A stretch of 4,786 nucleotides of DNA from a virus. Its lineage: Duplodnaviria > Heunggongvirae > Uroviricota > Caudoviricetes. Below, in pieces: positions 1 to 4,786 of this stretch. The stretch lies in IMG/VR virus record IMGVR_UViG_2565956721_000003, one strand, 5' to 3'. Below the pieces are notes generated by a model, which saw only the letters and a program-made list of their open reading frames with translations, was not told the DNA's origin and did not search any database. Numbering within the stretch: the first letter of the stretch is position 1; each line of letters begins with the position of its first letter. Made by a program: the position numbers and the translations under genes.

Positions 1-555
1 AAGCAGAAAAAGCTTATTATGCTTCCATCGGAAACGATGATCTGGCAGCCTGAGTTCACAGATAAAACACTCTCCAGGAAACCCGGGGCGGTTCATTAGA
101 TGCTTTTTGCTGACTAGCATATTTACAGCATCACGAAGCGGAGTCCTGTCATCAACAGATGTTTTCTTCCGTGCATTTGCTGCCTCTCCCTTTGTCCAGT
201 AGTCATGCAGCACAGTAAAGCATTCTTCCTGGTACTGAATCAGTTTATCGCGGATGTCAGCACGAACTTTCTCAGGGTTGATGCTGAACAGCCATCCATT
301 TAACTTCTTCAAAGGAAGGCAGAGTAGCTTACGAAGCTTACCATCAGCGGCAACCATGTTCATATGAACACAGTTGAATTTGCTAATCTGCTTCATGAGT
401 TTTGTTTGCTGCGTTGACCAGCTCATTCCGAGGTTTTCAACGATTGGCTTCATCGCAACATATGCAACTCCGGCAGCCATGGCGGTGATAATTTGCTGAC
501 CGTTGAATGGCACGTAAGAGGTGTTCACTGCTTCTAAAATTGCTATACTATTCAT
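1..555 (-). CDS. ant: Phage antirepressor Ant (AntA-type N-terminal domain); 5' portion only, gene continues past the window start
   Basis: Minus-strand frame is open from the ATG at 555-553 to position 1 (185 codons, no stop), translated by hand as [60 protein letters not shown]...[20 protein letters not shown] lies about 10 nt upstream of the ATG. The N-terminus matches my recollection of P22 Ant and AntA-domain antirepressors, and the gene sits downstream of an arc-like gene as in P22 immI. Not in the ORF track because it runs off the window edge. Confidence 0.8.
541..549 (+). promoter_or_regulatory. Candidate extended -10 promoter (TGcTATACT) firing antisense to the ant start; possible Psar analogue
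   Basis: Plus strand 541-549 reads TGCTATACT, a TGn + TATAAT-like hexamer with one mismatch. No good -35 was found. A start about 7 nt downstream would fall at about 556, opposite the ant ribosome-binding site. Confidence 0.3.
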
Positions 556-637
556 GTTGGTTTTTCTCCACGGATTTACCGACAACCGAAGCCCTGACTG
601 TTCCAGCAGTTGGGGCTTCACTGTTTTGATTTCTTTG
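556..637 (+). ncRNA. Candidate small antisense RNA (sar-like) complementary to the ant ribosome-binding site
   Basis: A candidate promoter at 541-549 and a plus-strand hairpin with T-run at 588-637 bracket a roughly 70-80 nt transcript antisense to the ant Shine-Dalgarno and start codon. In phage P22 a 68-69 nt antisense sar RNA from the arc-ant intercistronic region is established. Inference from sequence signals only. Confidence 0.35.
588..637 (+). terminator. Plus-strand intrinsic terminator-like hairpin followed by a T-rich tract
   Basis: GAAGCCC (588-594) pairs with GGGCTTC (613-619), with possible inner CTG/CAG pairs, followed by ACTGTTTTGATTTCTTTG (620-637). On the minus strand the same hairpin is not followed by a T-run, so the signal is orientation-specific. 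Confidence 0.4.
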
Positions 638-787
638 CCGCATCAAGCATCACTTCTGAAAACGTGCGCTTGCCACTGAATACTCTTTCTCTTCTCAATT
701 TTTCGTTCGTGCCAAATGATTCGCCATGAACAAAATTTGGTCTTAAAATGGTAATCGCAATCTCTTTGACTACTGCATCCAAGCGAA

Positions 788-940
788 TCACACCGTTACC
801 CCCTCTCTCTTCAGGCTGTCTATCAGGCGCTTGATAACCTCTGAGTTAAACGACCTGCACTCTTCCTTTGCCCTGCTACCGATAGCATCCTTTAACGACT
901 GCGGCATCCTTACCAAAATCTTACTTATTTCTTTCTCCAT
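788..940 (-). CDS. arc: Arc-like ribbon-helix-helix repressor (50 aa)
   Basis: Within track ORF 788..976 the likely start is the internal ATG at 940-938, preceded by GGAGGG with 5-nt spacing. Product MEKEISKILVRMPQSLKDAIGSRAKEECRSFNSEVIKRLIDSLKREGVTV has the size and the 'xxRSxNSE' core of P22 Arc (NGRSVNSE in P22) and lies immediately upstream of ant. Confidence 0.8.
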   Translation of the reverse strand: MEKEISKILVRMPQSLKDAIGSRAKEECRSFNSEVIKRLIDSLKREGVTV

Positions 941-976
941 GTTACCCTCCACGCAAACAACTCTTTTCGAATACAA

Positions 977-1041
977 AAGATAGCAAAGTGAGTATATCTA
1001 GTCAAAATTTTTTTGCATACACTTTGCTATCAAATTGAATA
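977..1041. promoter_or_regulatory. Divergent arc/ant (Pant-like) and mnt (Pmnt-like) promoter region with a perfect 12-bp inverted repeat, candidate operators
   Basis: Minus strand: TTGACT (complement of 1000-1005), 17-bp spacer, TATCTT (complement of 977-982), a good sigma70 match about 35 nt upstream of arc. Plus strand: weaker TTTGCA/TTGCAT (1012-1018) and TTGAAT (1035-1040) upstream of mnt. GATAGCAAAGTG (979-990) and CACTTTGCTATC (1020-1031) are exact reverse complements 29 bp apart; one half overlaps the Pant -10 and the other lies in the Pmnt spacer. Confidence 0.5.
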
Positions 1042-1054
1042 CCAAAGGTGTTAT

Positions 1055-1303
1055 ATGGCAAAGGGTGTGTCAATTTCTCCAACTACGGTAAGAATCCCTG
1101 AATCTTTACGCGAGGCTCTTGCTGTCAGAGCATCAAAAAATGGTCGCTCTGTTAACTCCGAGATCGTCATGATTTTGCAAGCCGCGATTGATGAAGATAG
1201 GTCGCCAAAGTCAGTTGAGTCATTTGCTCAGCAAGAAGCTGATAAATTCAAAGAGGCGCTACTTGAGACGCTAAAGACCATGTATGCTAAGGATGAAAAA
1301 TAA
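1055..1303 (+). CDS. mnt: Mnt-like ribbon-helix-helix repressor (82 aa)
   Basis: Within track ORF 1013..1303 the likely start is the ATG at 1055, with AAGGTG 4-5 nt upstream. Product MAKGVSISPTTVRIPESLREALAVRASKNGRSVNSEIVMILQAAIDEDRSPKSVESFAQQEADKFKEALLETLKTMYAKDEK matches P22 Mnt in length (82 aa), in the NGRSxNSE motif and in the C-terminal TLKxxYxK segment. It is divergent from arc as in P22 immI. Confidence 0.8.
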   Translation: MAKGVSISPTTVRIPESLREALAVRASKNGRSVNSEIVMILQAAIDEDRSPKSVESFAQQEADKFKEALLETLKTMYAKDEK

Positions 1304-1837
1304 TGCTGCACACAATTCATTTCTTATGCCCTGTTAACACTGCCACTGTTGGGCAACTTCAGAACCACTGTCTCACCGCATTATCTCAAGGCGCAACTGA
1401 ATTAAATATCCATATATCAAGTCAGGGAGGGGAAACTGCTTGGCTTTACTGCGTATAACTTTCTTAAGTCACTCCCTGTTACCGTTAGAACTCACAACAT
1501 AAGCAATGTTGAATCCATAGCTAATATCGTTTTCCTGGCTGGCTCAGAACGTTTCGCAAACCCATTATCAAGATTCCTGTTACATCCTCTATTATGGTGC
1601 TTTGCCTCCCCAGCCGCCGACCATGCCAGATTGAGAGAGTACGGGAAATGCCTCGATAACGATCTTGATCGCTTCGTTGAGACGTTCAATATCGACATCG
1701 GAACCCATATTAGGTGGGCATCCCTGATAGCAGACTCGACCATTTTGGATGCTAACAAGGCTCTTGAGCATGGCATAATTAATTCCATAAAAACTGCAAG
1801 GCTGGCATCCAATCAGGCAAACTGGTGGGTTGTTTGA
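1303..1837 (+). pseudogene. ClpP-like (S14-type) serine protease gene, start overlapping the mnt stop (TAATG), interrupted by a single-nucleotide frameshift near 1440-1441
   Basis: Frame 1 (1303-1458) gives MLHTIHFLCPVNTATVGQLQNHCLTALSQGATELNIHISSQGGETAWLYCV*. Frame 2 (open 1406-1837, includes track ORF 1631..1837) gives ...GFTAYNFLKSLPVTVRTHNISNVESIANIVFLAGSERFANPLSRFLLHPLLW...DANKALEHGIINSIKT.... Joined, this aligns with remembered E. coli ClpP across [47 protein letters not shown] and APEAVEYGLVDSI, with Ser/His/Asp at the expected triad positions. Removing one T from GCTTGGC (about 1439-1443) restores ...GGETAGFTAY.... Confidence 0.6.
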
Positions 1838-1862
1838 TGGGTAAATCATGATTACTCCTTAT

Positions 1863-1887
1863 AAAAAACCCACCTGACGGTGGGTTT
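1863..1887. terminator. Bidirectional intrinsic terminator between the convergent protease gene and the toxin operon
   Basis: AAAAAA (1863-1868), CCCACC (1869-1874), loop TGAC, GGTGGG (1879-1884), TTT (1885-1887). On the minus strand the stem is followed by six T, so termination is strongest for the minus-strand operon ending at 1886; on the plus strand only three T follow. Confidence 0.6.
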
Positions 1888-2335
1888 AGTCAAACATAGT
1901 GTTTCTAAAGTCTCTCGCATACCCTGCTAACACTCTCATTCTATTATGATTGTTAGCAGACATGTGAGCTACAGGATGAAAAAGAGCAATCAATGAATAC
2001 CTGTTCTCATCAAAAAGATTTTGTGCATAAACGAGAGCGGTATTGGATGTTTTATGCCACTGCAACTTTTGCGGTGTGCTGATATCTGTGCCATTTTTTA
2101 TTGGCTCAAATTTATTTTCACCAATTGCTAAATGAAGGTGCATAAGGCCTGCATCTTCAATATCAGGAGGTCGATGATAAGAGGTGTCTCTGCCAAAATA
2201 GCTGGGCAACGTTCCCGTAGACTTGTAGATGATAAAATCATCTACAAGTGTTTGTTTTAAATCAGGAAACTCAACAAAAACCGGGGAGAAAAAATAGTCA
2301 AAACTATCCTGATTATATTCCACGGTTACTTGCAT
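1886..2335 (-). CDS. YafO-family toxin (ribosome-dependent mRNA interferase family), 149 aa
   Basis: Track ORF 1886..2335. FIIYKSTGTLPSYFGRDTSYHRP, LMHLHLAIGENKFEP and ALVYAQNLFDENRYSLIALFHPVAHMSANNHNRMRVLAGYARDFR align with E. coli YafO as I recall it (FISYKRDGVLPDIFGRDALYDDS, VAHIHLANENNPFP, HLVYCQGAFDEQAWLLIAILKPEPHKLARDNNQMHKIGKMAEAFR). The ATG at 2335 is 8 nt after the upstream gene's stop, with GAGG overlapping that stop. Confidence 0.8.
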   Translation of the reverse strand: MQVTVEYNQDSFDYFFSPVFVEFPDLKQTLVDDFIIYKSTGTLPSYFGRDTSYHRPPDIEDAGLMHLHLAIGENKFEPIKNGTDISTPQKLQWHKTSNTALVYAQNLFDENRYSLIALFHPVAHMSANNHNRMRVLAGYARDFRNTMFD

Positions 2336-2343
2336 GTTTTACC

Positions 2344-2910
2344 TCAGTGGAAGTTACCAGAGTGAAACACACGAGTCCCGTGCTCAGCAAGCGCACGCAA
2401 ACCAGCCATATCTACGGAACTATCAAAAACAACCGGAACACATGAGCGTTGTTTAATAAGACTATTCAGGTTGGTTACGGCAGATCTGGCATCAGCAACA
2501 ACGATATAGATATCTCTTGCGATCTCTTTAAAATCAGCAGAAGCTTCTTTGAATACCGATTTCATTGCCCCTTCAAGTCCTCTCAATTGATGCTCTATCA
2601 ATCGAGACTTTTCTGGTTCAATGATAGACAACACATTGTCTACATTCTCATCGGTAGCGTTTGCAAGAACACGATAAGCGTATTTCAGCATTCGAGACAA
2701 TTCTTTAATCGAAGACACCGCCTCATGAAGCTCATCATTAGCCCGTTCACTGCTGAATGAGGATTGATGGTAAGCGTGCTGAACGTTATCAGTAACAACC
2801 ACCTCACAACTGAACGCAGAAGCTTGCTGTAATAGCAAACCTATTGCGACTCCAGCTTTGGCAGCGTTCAAGCTAAACATTTCATCAATCCCATTAGTCT
2901 CATTGCTCAT
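2344..2910 (-). CDS. Hypothetical 188-aa protein encoded immediately upstream of, and coupled to, the YafO-like toxin gene; candidate atypical antitoxin or partner
   Basis: Track ORF 2344..2940; preferred start is the ATG at 2910-2908, preceded by AAGGAGG with 5-nt spacing (the track's Met at 2940 is a TTG with no RBS). Product MSNETNGIDEMFSLNAAKAGVAIGLLLQQ...GLRALAEHGTRVFHSGNFH has no recognisable RHH or HTH N-terminus and no family I can name. It is roughly twice the size of the known YafO partner YafN (97 aa). Confidence 0.7.
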   Translation of the reverse strand: MSNETNGIDEMFSLNAAKAGVAIGLLLQQASAFSCEVVVTDNVQHAYHQSSFSSERANDELHEAVSSIKELSRMLKYAYRVLANATDENVDNVLSIIEPEKSRLIEHQLRGLEGAMKSVFKEASADFKEIARDIYIVVADARSAVTNLNSLIKQRSCVPVVFDSSVDMAGLRALAEHGTRVFHSGNFH

Positions 2911-2977
2911 ACAAACCTCCTTCTTATCGGAGATTATCAATAGCTATGCATCCATTGAATACACGCTATGCGCAATA

Positions 2978-3006
2978 AGTTTACGTCACGTGATATCATT
3001 ATGCAA
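2978..3006 (-). promoter_or_regulatory. Candidate sigma70 promoter for the 188-aa/YafO-like operon, with palindromic candidate operator in the spacer
   Basis: Minus strand: TTGCAT (complement of 3001-3006), 17-bp spacer, TAAACT (complement of 2978-2983), about 60 nt upstream of the ATG at 2910. The spacer contains overlapping 8-bp palindromes TCACGTGA (2986-2993) and TGATATCA (2991-2998). Confidence 0.35.
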
Positions 3007-3085
3007 CCACCGTTCTATCACCGACTAACTTTACTCCCACTCCTATACATCATCTGGTATCCTGCGCAAAACTAAGGAGGTTGGT

Positions 3086-3436
3086 GTGAATGCTCAGTCT
3101 GTCATCATGGTTTTCCTTGGGCTGATTGTCGCAAAACTATATCCAGACTGGTGGAAAGGGGCATTAGCTACTGTCGCCATCTATTTGCTTTTATCCATCG
3201 TTAAGCGATCACTCGCTGAGACCGTAAATCAAGCAAAACGTTTCTCATTTAAGAGTTTAATAAACTATGTTACTGGGCTTATTTTTTGCCTTTCAATTCT
3301 GATCGCTTCGGCTTTTTTGCCCGTATCAATAGCTAATTTTTTTGGCGCACCATATGAGGTAGGTTATCTATTCTCTGTTTCCTGTCTTGCCATTGCTCTT
3401 CTTTACCTGTGGACGAGATCAAAGAATAAAAATTAG
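3086..3436 (+). CDS. Small integral membrane protein (116 aa, about four predicted TM helices); candidate superinfection-exclusion or abortive-infection effector
   Basis: Track ORF 3086..3436 with GTG start and AAGGAGG (3074-3080) at 5-nt spacing. Four hydrophobic stretches (SVIMVFLGLIVAKLY, GALATVAIYLLLSIV, LINYVTGLIFCLSILIASAFL, YLFSVSCLAIALLYLW) and a basic C-terminus RSKNKN. It occupies the position between mnt and gene 16 where P22 carries sieA; I could not confirm sequence similarity to SieA from memory. Confidence 0.65.
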   Translation: MNAQSVIMVFLGLIVAKLYPDWWKGALATVAIYLLLSIVKRSLAETVNQAKRFSFKSLINYVTGLIFCLSILIASAFLPVSIANFFGAPYEVGYLFSVSCLAIALLYLWTRSKNKN

Positions 3437-3453
3437 CCATCCGTGGCTGCCAG

Positions 3454-4691
3454 TTATTGAGCTTCTTTTTGTGATGCCTGTGCGACTCTGGTGAGCGATT
3501 GTGTGACCGTACTGATCGCTCTGTCATATGCTGTGCTACCTTTTGGCGTATTTGCCAGACGTAACAAGGCATTTCGTATAACAGGGCTTTCGTATGCCTT
3601 CGCAGCTCCTCCTACGACACCAGCAGCAGGAACAACAAACGCAGCCGTTTTTAGCATCCCCGCTAATACTGCTGCGTTTATGATGCCACCACCAACTAAC
3701 AATCCATAAAGCTGCTGACCATTTAAGTTTTGAACGTTCGCTTTTGCCGCGTGTCTTGTATCGTTGAGGTATTTAATAACGCCGTCCAGTTCCTTTCCAT
3801 GTACGCCTTTAAAGAAAGTTGCTGATTGCTTCCTGTTCCGGTGTAACGCATTAATAAACTTTTCAACACTAATATTTCCAGACGGATCAGTCGCCTTATC
3901 TACAGCATTCTGAACTATGGCTGCTCGTGCGTTTTGCCTACCATTGTCATCCAGAAGCCTGTAAAGCTGAGAACGTTCTGATGGGTTTTGGCTAAAAACG
4001 AGTTTTGTTACATCCTCAGGTGTAGCCTTGCCGCTGGCTATTGCCTTTTGAACGCGCGTTCTTCCCATCATGTCATTGAATCTAGCCCATGAGCGATCAA
4101 CCCTAGACATATTGGCAGCTTCTTCTGAGCCTAGTTTTTGGGATACTGCTTTTTTCATATCCGCTGTATATGCCTTGTAGACAATATCGCTGGCTTTCTG
4201 GAGCGTGTCTTTATCAACAGTCTCGTTTGAATTCATGAACCGCTTTCGAAGGTCAGTTCTGTTTTCTCTCGCCAGACGCAGGTCATTGGGTCCGCTGGTG
4301 ATATCGTCTTTAAATTGCTGCAAGACTTTTACCGCGGCTCTATCCTGAGATTTGCCCGGGCGGCTTAACACGGCAATCTGATTGTCGATAGCTTTTACCG
4401 TGTTTGAGAGATCGACAGGGGTATCCCCCATAGCGTCAATTATGCGGTTATATCGCTTTCCTGCTGCCTCAATGAATTTTTGTTGCCCTTTAGTCGCAGA
4501 TTCATAAAGCTGTTTATCAGAAATGCCACCCAGACCATCGCTAAATGTTCTGACTAAATTTTCTCGTGCTTGTTGTTGATTCAGCCGATTCTTACCGGTT
4601 CCAAAAAAAGGAACTCTTTCGCCTAATGTCTGAGCCTGACTCTGCATAAAGGTTTTATCTTTCAGCGTGTCACTGGTCATTAACGGCAGGT
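3454..4691 (-). CDS. Phage late protein, probable DNA ejection/injection protein (P22 gp16-like by position), 3' portion; 5' end interrupted by an IS element
   Basis: Track ORF 3454..4680 (408 aa). The frame stays open upstream of the ATG at 4680 through the IS boundary and stops only at 4717-4719 inside IS sequence, so the native N-terminus is missing. A glycine-rich hydrophobic segment (GLLVGGGIINAAVLAGMLKTAAFVVPAAGVVGGAAKA) sits near the C-terminus. Assignment to gp16 rests on synteny with P22 (gene 16 lies next to the sieA/mnt side of immI) and on the size deficit (about 410 of roughly 600 aa). Confidence 0.5.
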
Positions 4692-4786
4692 TGAACCGCC
4701 CCGGGAATCCTGGAGACTAAACTTCCTGAGAAAGAGGTAAACAGGATGACTAAAAATACTCGTTTTTCCCCCGAAGTCCGTCAACG
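4692..4786 (+). mobile_element. IS3-family insertion sequence (IS629/IS1203-like), left terminal inverted repeat and start of orfA; continues beyond window
   Basis: TGAACCGCCCCGGGAATCCTGGAGACTAAAC... from 4692 matches the IS3-family left end as I recall it (TGA terminus), followed by AGAGG and the ATG at 4746. Confidence 0.65.
4746..4786 (+). CDS. IS3-family transposase OrfA, N-terminal 13 codons only
   Basis: Translation MTKNTRFSPEVRQ(R) matches the OrfA N-terminus of IS629/IS1203-type elements from memory. AGAGG lies upstream of the ATG. Confidence 0.65.
   Translation, partial: MTKNTRFSPEVRQ

Follow-up and report, generated by a model that had tools for sequence, protein, structure and literature searches.

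YafO is generally introduced as the yafNO toxin. Prophage toxin-antitoxin (TA) modules also serve as abortive-infection defences, e.g., the fused CapRel-type toxin-antitoxin, and prophage cargo slots hold exported morons such as cor, bor and lom of lambdoid phages and those of the P22 sieA/immI region. The yafNO pair of E. coli K-12, situated in the dinB-yafN-yafO-yafP operon, is a type II TA system whose toxin is a ribosome-dependent mRNA interferase according to work cited in PMC11980606. A different principle is seen in NetFlax (PMC10440598), where known toxin families are joined by an unrelated antitoxin domain, Panacea (PanA/SocA-like), in prophage-borne pairs. Here, a 4,786-nucleotide stretch of viral DNA (IMG/VR record IMGVR_UViG_2565956721_000003, hereafter the window) was analyzed. 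It corresponds to the immI/sieA end of a prophage that resembles P22 and resides in extraintestinal pathogenic E. coli. Its minus strand carries a YafO-family gene (T) directly preceded by a gene for an unrecognized 188-residue protein (A). The reading we favor, held at about even confidence, is that A and T form a toxin-antitoxin module, genetically similar to type II systems, whose antitoxin belongs to a new family and in which A presumably neutralizes T.

The cassette resembles yafNO in that T belongs to PF13957, is 38% identical to K-12 YafO with the His, Lys and Tyr positions conserved, and is closely preceded by a gene in the antitoxin position. Unlike in yafNO, this upstream gene encodes an all-helical protein with a signal-peptide-like N-terminus that is unrelated to the 97-residue, Phd/YefM-type YafN; T itself is longer, with an N-terminal extension and an internal insertion, and scores under the NCBIfam equivalog cut-off; and the pair is prophage cargo rather than part of the SOS dinB operon. 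The likeness to CapRel-type systems is conceptual only, in that a putative translation-stopping toxin would travel as prophage cargo together with a neutralizing part of unusual size that may double as a sensor, and unlike those systems A-T has no significant match in PADLOC. With the P22 sieA/immI and lambdoid morons the cassette shares its slot (gene 16 to mnt, beside arc, sar RNA and ant), its bounding terminators and one exported-looking product. In contrast to those morons, to which it has no sequence similarity, the gene of the putative exported protein always accompanies one for a predicted cytoplasmic RNase. As in the Panacea systems, a toxin of known family occurs on a prophage together with an unrelated partner, and a Panacea-domain gene with its downstream gene fills the slot of A-T in phage phiv205-1. 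Unlike in NetFlax, A lacks a Panacea domain (a candidate rejected after a Pfam search of the family) and pairing is one-to-one, with an A-family partner for each of the long-form YafO proteins examined. Neither YafO nor PF13957 occurs in the main text or three supplementary files of the NetFlax study (PMC10440598).

An earlier note on this DNA, made without database searches, had called the downstream gene a YafO-family toxin, which was borne out by a profile check. T matched PF13957 with an E-value of 3.4e-22, covering profile positions 3-101 of 101 and scoring 78.9 bits where 25 are required, and the same family was assigned to gene 18 of the cultured phage HK639 and to the homologue in P. 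aeruginosa phage D14L. T also matched phrog_1651. Against the NCBIfam equivalog NF007377 it scored 79 bits, under the cut-off of 153, and is therefore a family member rather than an orthologue of K-12 YafO. Residues invariant between T and K-12 YafO are D33, F34, Y37, K38, P44, F47, G48, Y53, H66, F76, L101-V102-Y103, A117, P121, H124, M133 and F143. Long-form YafO proteins have an extra conserved N-terminal segment (M.V.VEYN..S..YFF.PVF..FP.L), an extension of ~9 residues, as well as the internal insertion, and by sequence T falls into a separate long-form clade of the family. This form apparently makes up the larger part of YafO diversity: 77 of 120 YafO-family clusters retrieved, with a profile query biased to the long form, were long-form and 35 were of the short yafNO type. 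By homology to K-12 YafO, T is a putative ribosome-dependent mRNA endoribonuclease toxin.

The tight coupling of the two minus-strand genes that the earlier note had described, including a ribosome-binding site lying over the upstream stop, can be read directly from the junction TGAGGTAAAACATG, in which the stop codon TGA of A (2346-2344), the Shine-Dalgarno (SD) motif GAGG (2345-2342) and the ATG of T (2335-2333) follow each other closely. Homologous loci preserve the DNA sequence of this junction, TTYCAYTGAGGTRNNNN(A/T)TG, and its gap measures 8 nt in 39 of 48 of them, so that it is not a product of chance. Since, in addition, the start codon of T is TTG in many homologues, translational coupling with low independent initiation of the toxin is suggested. 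No RNA structure above background was found at the junction.

Pairing of the two genes appears to be obligate. A was directly upstream of T in 48/48 loci scored together and in all 56 loci examined, which come from Enterobacterales, Pseudomonas and Orbaceae. Loci seeded by the toxin alone, through protein look-ups and a genome scan, all had an A-family gene upstream, and the remotest A members (20-28% identity) likewise had a YafO gene downstream. Four further long-form YafO proteins (Citrobacter, Photorhabdus, P. aeruginosa and Gilliamella) were preceded by an A-family protein with hidden Markov model E-values of 2e-14 to 4e-50, and a phmmer search with YafN found no YafN homologue in 35 loci. 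Identities of A and T to the window proteins correlate across loci (r 0.95), with A diverging faster than T (e.g., 38-43% identity for A where T retains 55-71%), which is the usual antitoxin/toxin asymmetry. As is generally expected of type II TA systems, A and T are thus adjacent, co-oriented small genes in one operon with pairing conserved across genomes.

A starts with the ATG at 2910, 6 nt after AAGGAGG, whereas its longest open reading frame (ORF) opens at TTG 2940. Comparison with the homologous Salmonella locus L019 gave a nonsynonymous divergence (dN) of 0.24 with saturated synonymous divergence (dS) and a dN/dS of about 0.11, i.e., A is under purifying selection; for T, dN was 0.08 with dS again saturated. 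No significant match to A was found in Pfam, NCBIfam or PADLOC. Pfam likewise returned nothing for 26 A-family members, including no Phd/YefM, and PADLOC-DB v2 gave only a weak ZorA match over a coiled stretch (E 0.0039, 14 bits). The only matching family was phrog_8416, of unknown function. A sequence-profile search of the PDB yielded nothing under E 0.2, and Foldseek searches of the AlphaFold 2 (AF2) model against PDB and BFVD nothing at E 0.001 or better. Homology to YafN was ruled out by an hhalign probability of 0.3%. The family is rare (6 clusters at 90% identity), and a profile search across all 1.84 billion representatives recovered 23 A-family proteins, all of ~170-190 residues and all named “hypothetical” in the databases. 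The note's description of the partner as unrecognized and unlike YafN thus survived both profile searches and structure prediction with fold search, and judged from these comparisons A represents a previously undescribed protein family that is most likely an antitoxin. Its acidity, which had been listed as a feature, is true of the window protein (pI 5.47) and no family trait, as pI values range from 4.9 to 9.3. Similarly, the absence of a recognizable DNA-binding N-terminus was upheld, but this N-terminus is not featureless, as it resembles a signal peptide.

AF2 models of A, generated twice from alignments of 7 and 26 sequences, agree with each other and contain helices only (predicted local distance difference test, pLDDT, 75.6). 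A hydrophobic helix at residues 16-37 was modeled with low confidence (pLDDT about 66) and is followed by a hypervariable, disordered linker (residues 34-53). Next comes a bundle of long helices (residues 54-156), predicted with confidence, which bears the conserved motifs E.QLRGLEGA.K and VA.ARSA...LN.LI.Q. The C-terminal part (residues 157-188) consists of an extended stretch and a helix at 168-184 (pLDDT 77-88), and contains the family consensus F.S.IDM.GLR.LA.HGT.VF.SG.FH. Antitoxins that wrap toxins of the RelE superfamily typically do so with a conserved C-terminal strand-plus-helix tail. Codons 158-188 of A are therefore a putative toxin-binding tail.

Regulatory features surround the pair. 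The candidate promoter of the pair that the earlier note had listed is weakly supported and the least secure of its claims: a consensus scan of the minus strand over 2911-3085 gave no site with at least 9/12 promoter matches, whereas a weaker candidate was picked out by eye (Table 1), whose hexamer positions are kept in Salmonella L019 (TTGCAG-17-TAGACT). Its spacer holds the dyads TGATATCA and TCACGTGA. The SD of A can be paired in a leader hairpin, and in the larger subfamily of HK639-type cassettes the equivalent CUCC/GGAG stem is invariant in 17/17 leaders. A conserved non-coding leader of ~135 nt travels along with the HK639-type cassettes (L049/HK639, ~3820-3962; L002, ~3285-3420; L005, ~3290-3420). 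First in order is a dyad (TTGCTCA-N4-TGAGCAA) that lies over a promoter-like element; next come a small hairpin and a terminator-like GC-rich hairpin with U-run and compensatory stem changes, and last the SD-occluding CUCC/GGAG stem. Rfam contains no family matching this leader, which is possibly a cis-regulatory element not described before; we read it as probable tight cis-control of A translation and, via coupling, of T. The strong terminator reported earlier after T was confirmed; it is bidirectional and common to T and the convergent ClpP-like gene. Our pattern scanner had missed it because A/U pairs lengthen the stem into the U-run. A 38-nt block containing this terminator is 100% identical in Emek (two records), phiv205-1, EC.P3 and E212, and is labelled “terminator” in Emek.

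The pair occurs in 55 of 5,426 complete E. coli genomes (~1%), always on the chromosome and at least 99% identical; carriers include S88, APEC O1 and the type strain ATCC 11775. The cassette is also found in the cultured phage HK639. The window pair is 100% identical to the S88 copy, although insertion sequence (IS) elements interrupt ant and gp16 and the ClpP-like gene has a frameshift. At least five distinct phage contexts were found, usually with flanking terminators: the P22-like gene 16 to mnt (sieA/immI) slot (the window and L009-L019); siphovirus tail modules, including HK639 genes 17 and 18; the interval between Q and lysis genes; a myovirus baseplate module; and sites beside integrases or cI/Cro, including Pseudomonas phage vB_PaeS-D14L. 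Phages phiv205-1 and Emek have the same flanking terminator and ClpP-like gene as the window with other genes in the slot. In the Lederbergvirus phiv205-1 (L051, 3541-4407), the slot is occupied by a 91-residue Panacea/SocA-domain protein followed by a 160-residue phrog_8366 protein, which by sequence looks like a PanA-type toxin-antitoxin pair and suggests that the slot exchanges TA-like cassettes. A-T is therefore a mobile prophage cargo (moron) cassette in a variable, terminator-bounded slot, in line with the cargo status proposed earlier.

In Pseudomonas, the YafO family toxin of vB_PaeS-D14L was published without a partner (PMC10449497), and P. aeruginosa prophage YafO has been reported without an antitoxin (PMC10449497, PMC12066637). 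These “orphan” toxins have an A-family gene 8 nt upstream (L050, 1507-2459; chromosomes L057 and L058), and the P. aeruginosa toxin sequence is present in 649 blocks of the assembly collection. No paper was found that names the two RefSeq accessions, and papers on YafO in phage defense or prophages, the NetFlax supplements and papers on HK639 hold nothing about the A partner.

The remaining parts of the window belong to a decayed prophage (Table 1). Positions 90-4692 share 99.9% identity with strains S88, APEC O1 and ST95 strains, and in S88 the prophage adjoins tRNA-Arg and intS. Each end of the window is formed by the end of an IS3-family (IS629/IS1203-like) element, the two being in direct orientation, with the terminal repeat TGAACCGCCCCGGG and an orfA start (MTKNTRFSPEVRQ) at 4746; as these ends cut ant and the gp16 gene, the 4.6-kb cassette segment is bracketed like a composite transposon. 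The sar RNA, which regulates ant by antisense in the immI region of P22, has stayed intact although ant is cut by an IS element, and was the sole match in an Rfam search. The ClpP-like gene translationally overlaps the upstream Arc-like gene and converges on the terminator used by T; in the window strain it is a pseudogene, frameshifted by a 2-bp deletion near 1441 relative to S88. The divergent membrane ORF upstream of A encodes three hydrophobic segments and has no family match. It was considered as a third component and dropped, since it is present in the E. coli P22-like copies only and is thus separate cargo. An imperfect 16-nt inverted repeat, AAGGAGGTT(T/G)GT(A/G)TGA, links the initiation regions of A (2907-2922) and this ORF (3074-3089).

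Table 1 Features of the window (positions count from its first letter).
Feature	Position	Strand	Remarks
IS3-family end	1-97		
ant, cut short	to 555	-	P22_AR_N, E 1.6e-45
sar RNA	556-622	+	Rfam RF00262, 83.9 bits
57-aa ORF			between sar RNA and arc in left-to-right order
arc	788-940	-	
Arc-like gene	1055-1303	+	
ClpP-like gene	1303-1840	+	PF00574; 178 aa in S88
Intrinsic terminator after T	1860-1887	-	9-bp hairpin (1887-1866), then UUUUUU; -14.9 kcal/mol, z -2.7
T gene	1886-2335	-	149 aa; putative toxin, YafO family
A-T junction	2336-2346	-	stop TGA of A overlaps SD GAGG; 8-nt gap to ATG of T
A gene	2344-2910	-	188 aa; putative antitoxin
A codons 158-188	2347-2439	-	best-conserved family segment, VFDSSVDMxGLRxLAxHGTxVFxSGxFH
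A codons 11-32	2815-2880	-	non-amphipathic hydrophobic segment with signal-peptide grammar, MFSLNAAKAGVAIGLLLQQASA before FSC
Leader hairpin	2914-2935	-	anti-SD AAUCUCC, 8-nt loop, SD of A GGAGGUU; minimum free energy z -2.2
Candidate sigma-70 promoter	2978-3006	-	TTGCAT (3006-3001), 17 nt, TAAACT (2983-2978); by eye, 7/12 matches, weak
Membrane ORF, divergent	3086-3436	+	116 aa
gp16 ejection protein	3454-4680	-	C-terminal 408 codons
Second IS3-family end	4681-4786		

The state of T across copies bears on the function of the module. Two copies carry a frameshifted T with an intact A, in strain SF-088 (L052, equivalent to 2281 of the window) and in L009 (near 5622); both are otherwise near-identical and differ by single-base indels at about codon 17-18 of T, and no copy with disrupted A and intact T was seen among the loci examined. 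Together with the intact pair in a decayed prophage, this fits an addictive or beneficial module. A number of observations weigh on the other side. Both frameshifts lie in homopolymer runs and may be sequencing errors, so that the indels represent either toxin inactivation or such errors. Neither protein is significant against the PADLOC defense models, T having no match at all in PADLOC-DB v2. Profile and AF2 fold searches revealed no recognizable DNA-binding domain in A for the usual autoregulation, i.e., none of the helix-turn-helix, ribbon-helix-helix, AbrB or Phd domains that characterize type II antitoxins. T is acidic (pI 5.2-6.6), which is atypical of toxins that bind ribosomes or RNA. 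A match of opposite charges between the two proteins was also looked for and rejected, as both are acidic in the window. The signal-peptide-like N-termini of A also count here, as they predict export away from a cytoplasmic toxin and lower our confidence in a simple cytoplasmic, sequestering antitoxin.

This raises the alternative, which we consider somewhat unlikely, that A is Sec-exported or membrane-anchored, so that the module would be something other than a TA pair working by plain sequestration. The antitoxin could then be the precursor of A in the cytoplasm, made labile by export instead of proteolysis, so that toxin release would be tied to translation or export status; or A might act in the envelope, e.g., in superinfection exclusion or sensing; or T may be controlled otherwise, with its conserved N-terminal extension as one candidate regulator. 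A home-made rule for signal-peptide grammar (n/h/c layout plus a test for small residues at -3/-1), crude and also firing on the first transmembrane helix of transporters, was passed by 28/35 A-family members, 3/45 soluble cytoplasmic controls, 1/18 T-family proteins, 10/10 known E. coli signal peptides and 3/3 exported proteins of the control regions (YaaX, YaaI and MlaA). Some A N-termini look like textbook signal peptides, such as those of Citrobacter (MNPFNAITFAALCGPLACPAAMA before QE) and Gilliamella (MANHSVINSAILAALFAFSSQA before DE), and further examples are MNLSLRSCLAVVLFGGVLSVPSFSA before GY and ...VLTQPAALA before EA; between subfamilies, the n/h/c layout is kept and the sequence almost not. 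The low hydrophobic moment of the segment (0.05-0.15; 0.12 in the window protein) rules out an amphipathic bundle helix, and its low AF2 confidence with a disordered linker behind it likewise speaks for export. Exported moron proteins are also common in such phage slots, and HK639 gene 16, a neighbor of the cassette, encodes a lipoprotein. Two other forms of membrane attachment were rejected for A itself: a transmembrane helix, as 19-residue hydropathy is mostly <1.6, and a lipoprotein, as the conserved Cys35 has no preceding lipobox. This single cysteine (2806-2808) lies 2-3 residues past the predicted cut (FSC, LHC, IPC, MPC) and is kept in most enterobacterial members, outside any lipobox. 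Export is, however, disfavored for the window protein by an acidic n-region when counted from M1, which follows the strong SD (net -2 in the window, -2 to -4 including the Salmonella relatives); counted from the near-invariant M11, the charge is +1. Moreover, segment hydrophobicity is at the low end of the signal-peptide range, the motif GLLxQQ is conserved in enterobacterial subfamilies beyond what a plain signal peptide needs, and a physical complex of A with T is suggested by how tightly the two genes are coupled in translation and by their joint divergence. Literature searches on periplasmic, secreted, exported or membrane-anchored antitoxins found no papers for the phrases searched. That the A family is truly Sec-exported, or anchored by an uncleaved signal, with control of a cytoplasmic RNase tied to export or envelope state, is in our judgement unlikely. 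In one version of such control a short-lived cytoplasmic precursor of A may be the antitoxin and be removed by export, and in another a periplasmic sensor may be coupled to T; searches of obvious phrases found no precedent for export- or envelope-tied toxin control.

Quite improbable in our estimation is a role of A-T in the lytic program of the phage instead of in the lysogen, e.g., as a timed RNase for turnover of host or phage mRNA together with its inhibitor. The cassettes of HK639, L002, L004, L005, L006 and L055 are co-oriented with, and inside, late operons (tail, Q-lysis), and the window cassette is co-oriented with gene 16, which would permit late expression through read-through by antitermination-modified polymerase. 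Against this stand the flanking terminators and the conserved upstream block of its own with a promoter-like element, the intact state of the pair in a decayed, IS-ridden prophage, its further locations beside integrases or cI/Cro outside late operons, and its dispensability for related phages with other cargo in the slot. It is hardly credible, finally, that the locus is an ordinary yafNO-type pair with a divergent antitoxin, or that the 188-aa ORF is no real gene. RefSeq annotation could be taken that way, as T is listed as “type II toxin-antitoxin system YafO family toxin” and A as “hypothetical protein”, but this reading is refuted by the profile search of 1.84 billion representatives, the hhalign probability of 0.3% against YafN and the purifying selection on A, which is twice the length of YafN, all-helical and without Phd/YefM signal, with conservation reaching from E. 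coli as far as Pseudomonas and Orbaceae.

Returning to A-T as a toxin-antitoxin module, T would arrest translation as an mRNA endoribonuclease, as suggested by its homology to K-12 YafO. A is the obligate partner of T, most likely a protein antitoxin taking the place of YafN, and would hold T inactive by direct binding, probably via the conserved strand-plus-helix tail at its C-terminus. Expression would be kept low by the weak promoter, the SD-occluding hairpin ahead of A and the coupling-dependent initiation of T. The cassette moves between prophage cargo slots, and the benefit to lysogen or prophage would probably be stabilization, or abortive infection upon release of T. A sensing role for A, as proposed in the earlier note, found no backing in these comparisons and nothing against it.

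Because the A-type partner is unnamed in databases, pipelines and papers report long-form YafO as an “orphan”. Recognizing A corrects this annotation and adds a putative antitoxin family without a DNA-binding domain. As the cassette is carried by the cultured phage HK639 and by ~1% of complete E. coli genomes, it is directly testable, and if the signal-peptide-like N-terminus of A is functional, it would represent toxin control of a new kind.

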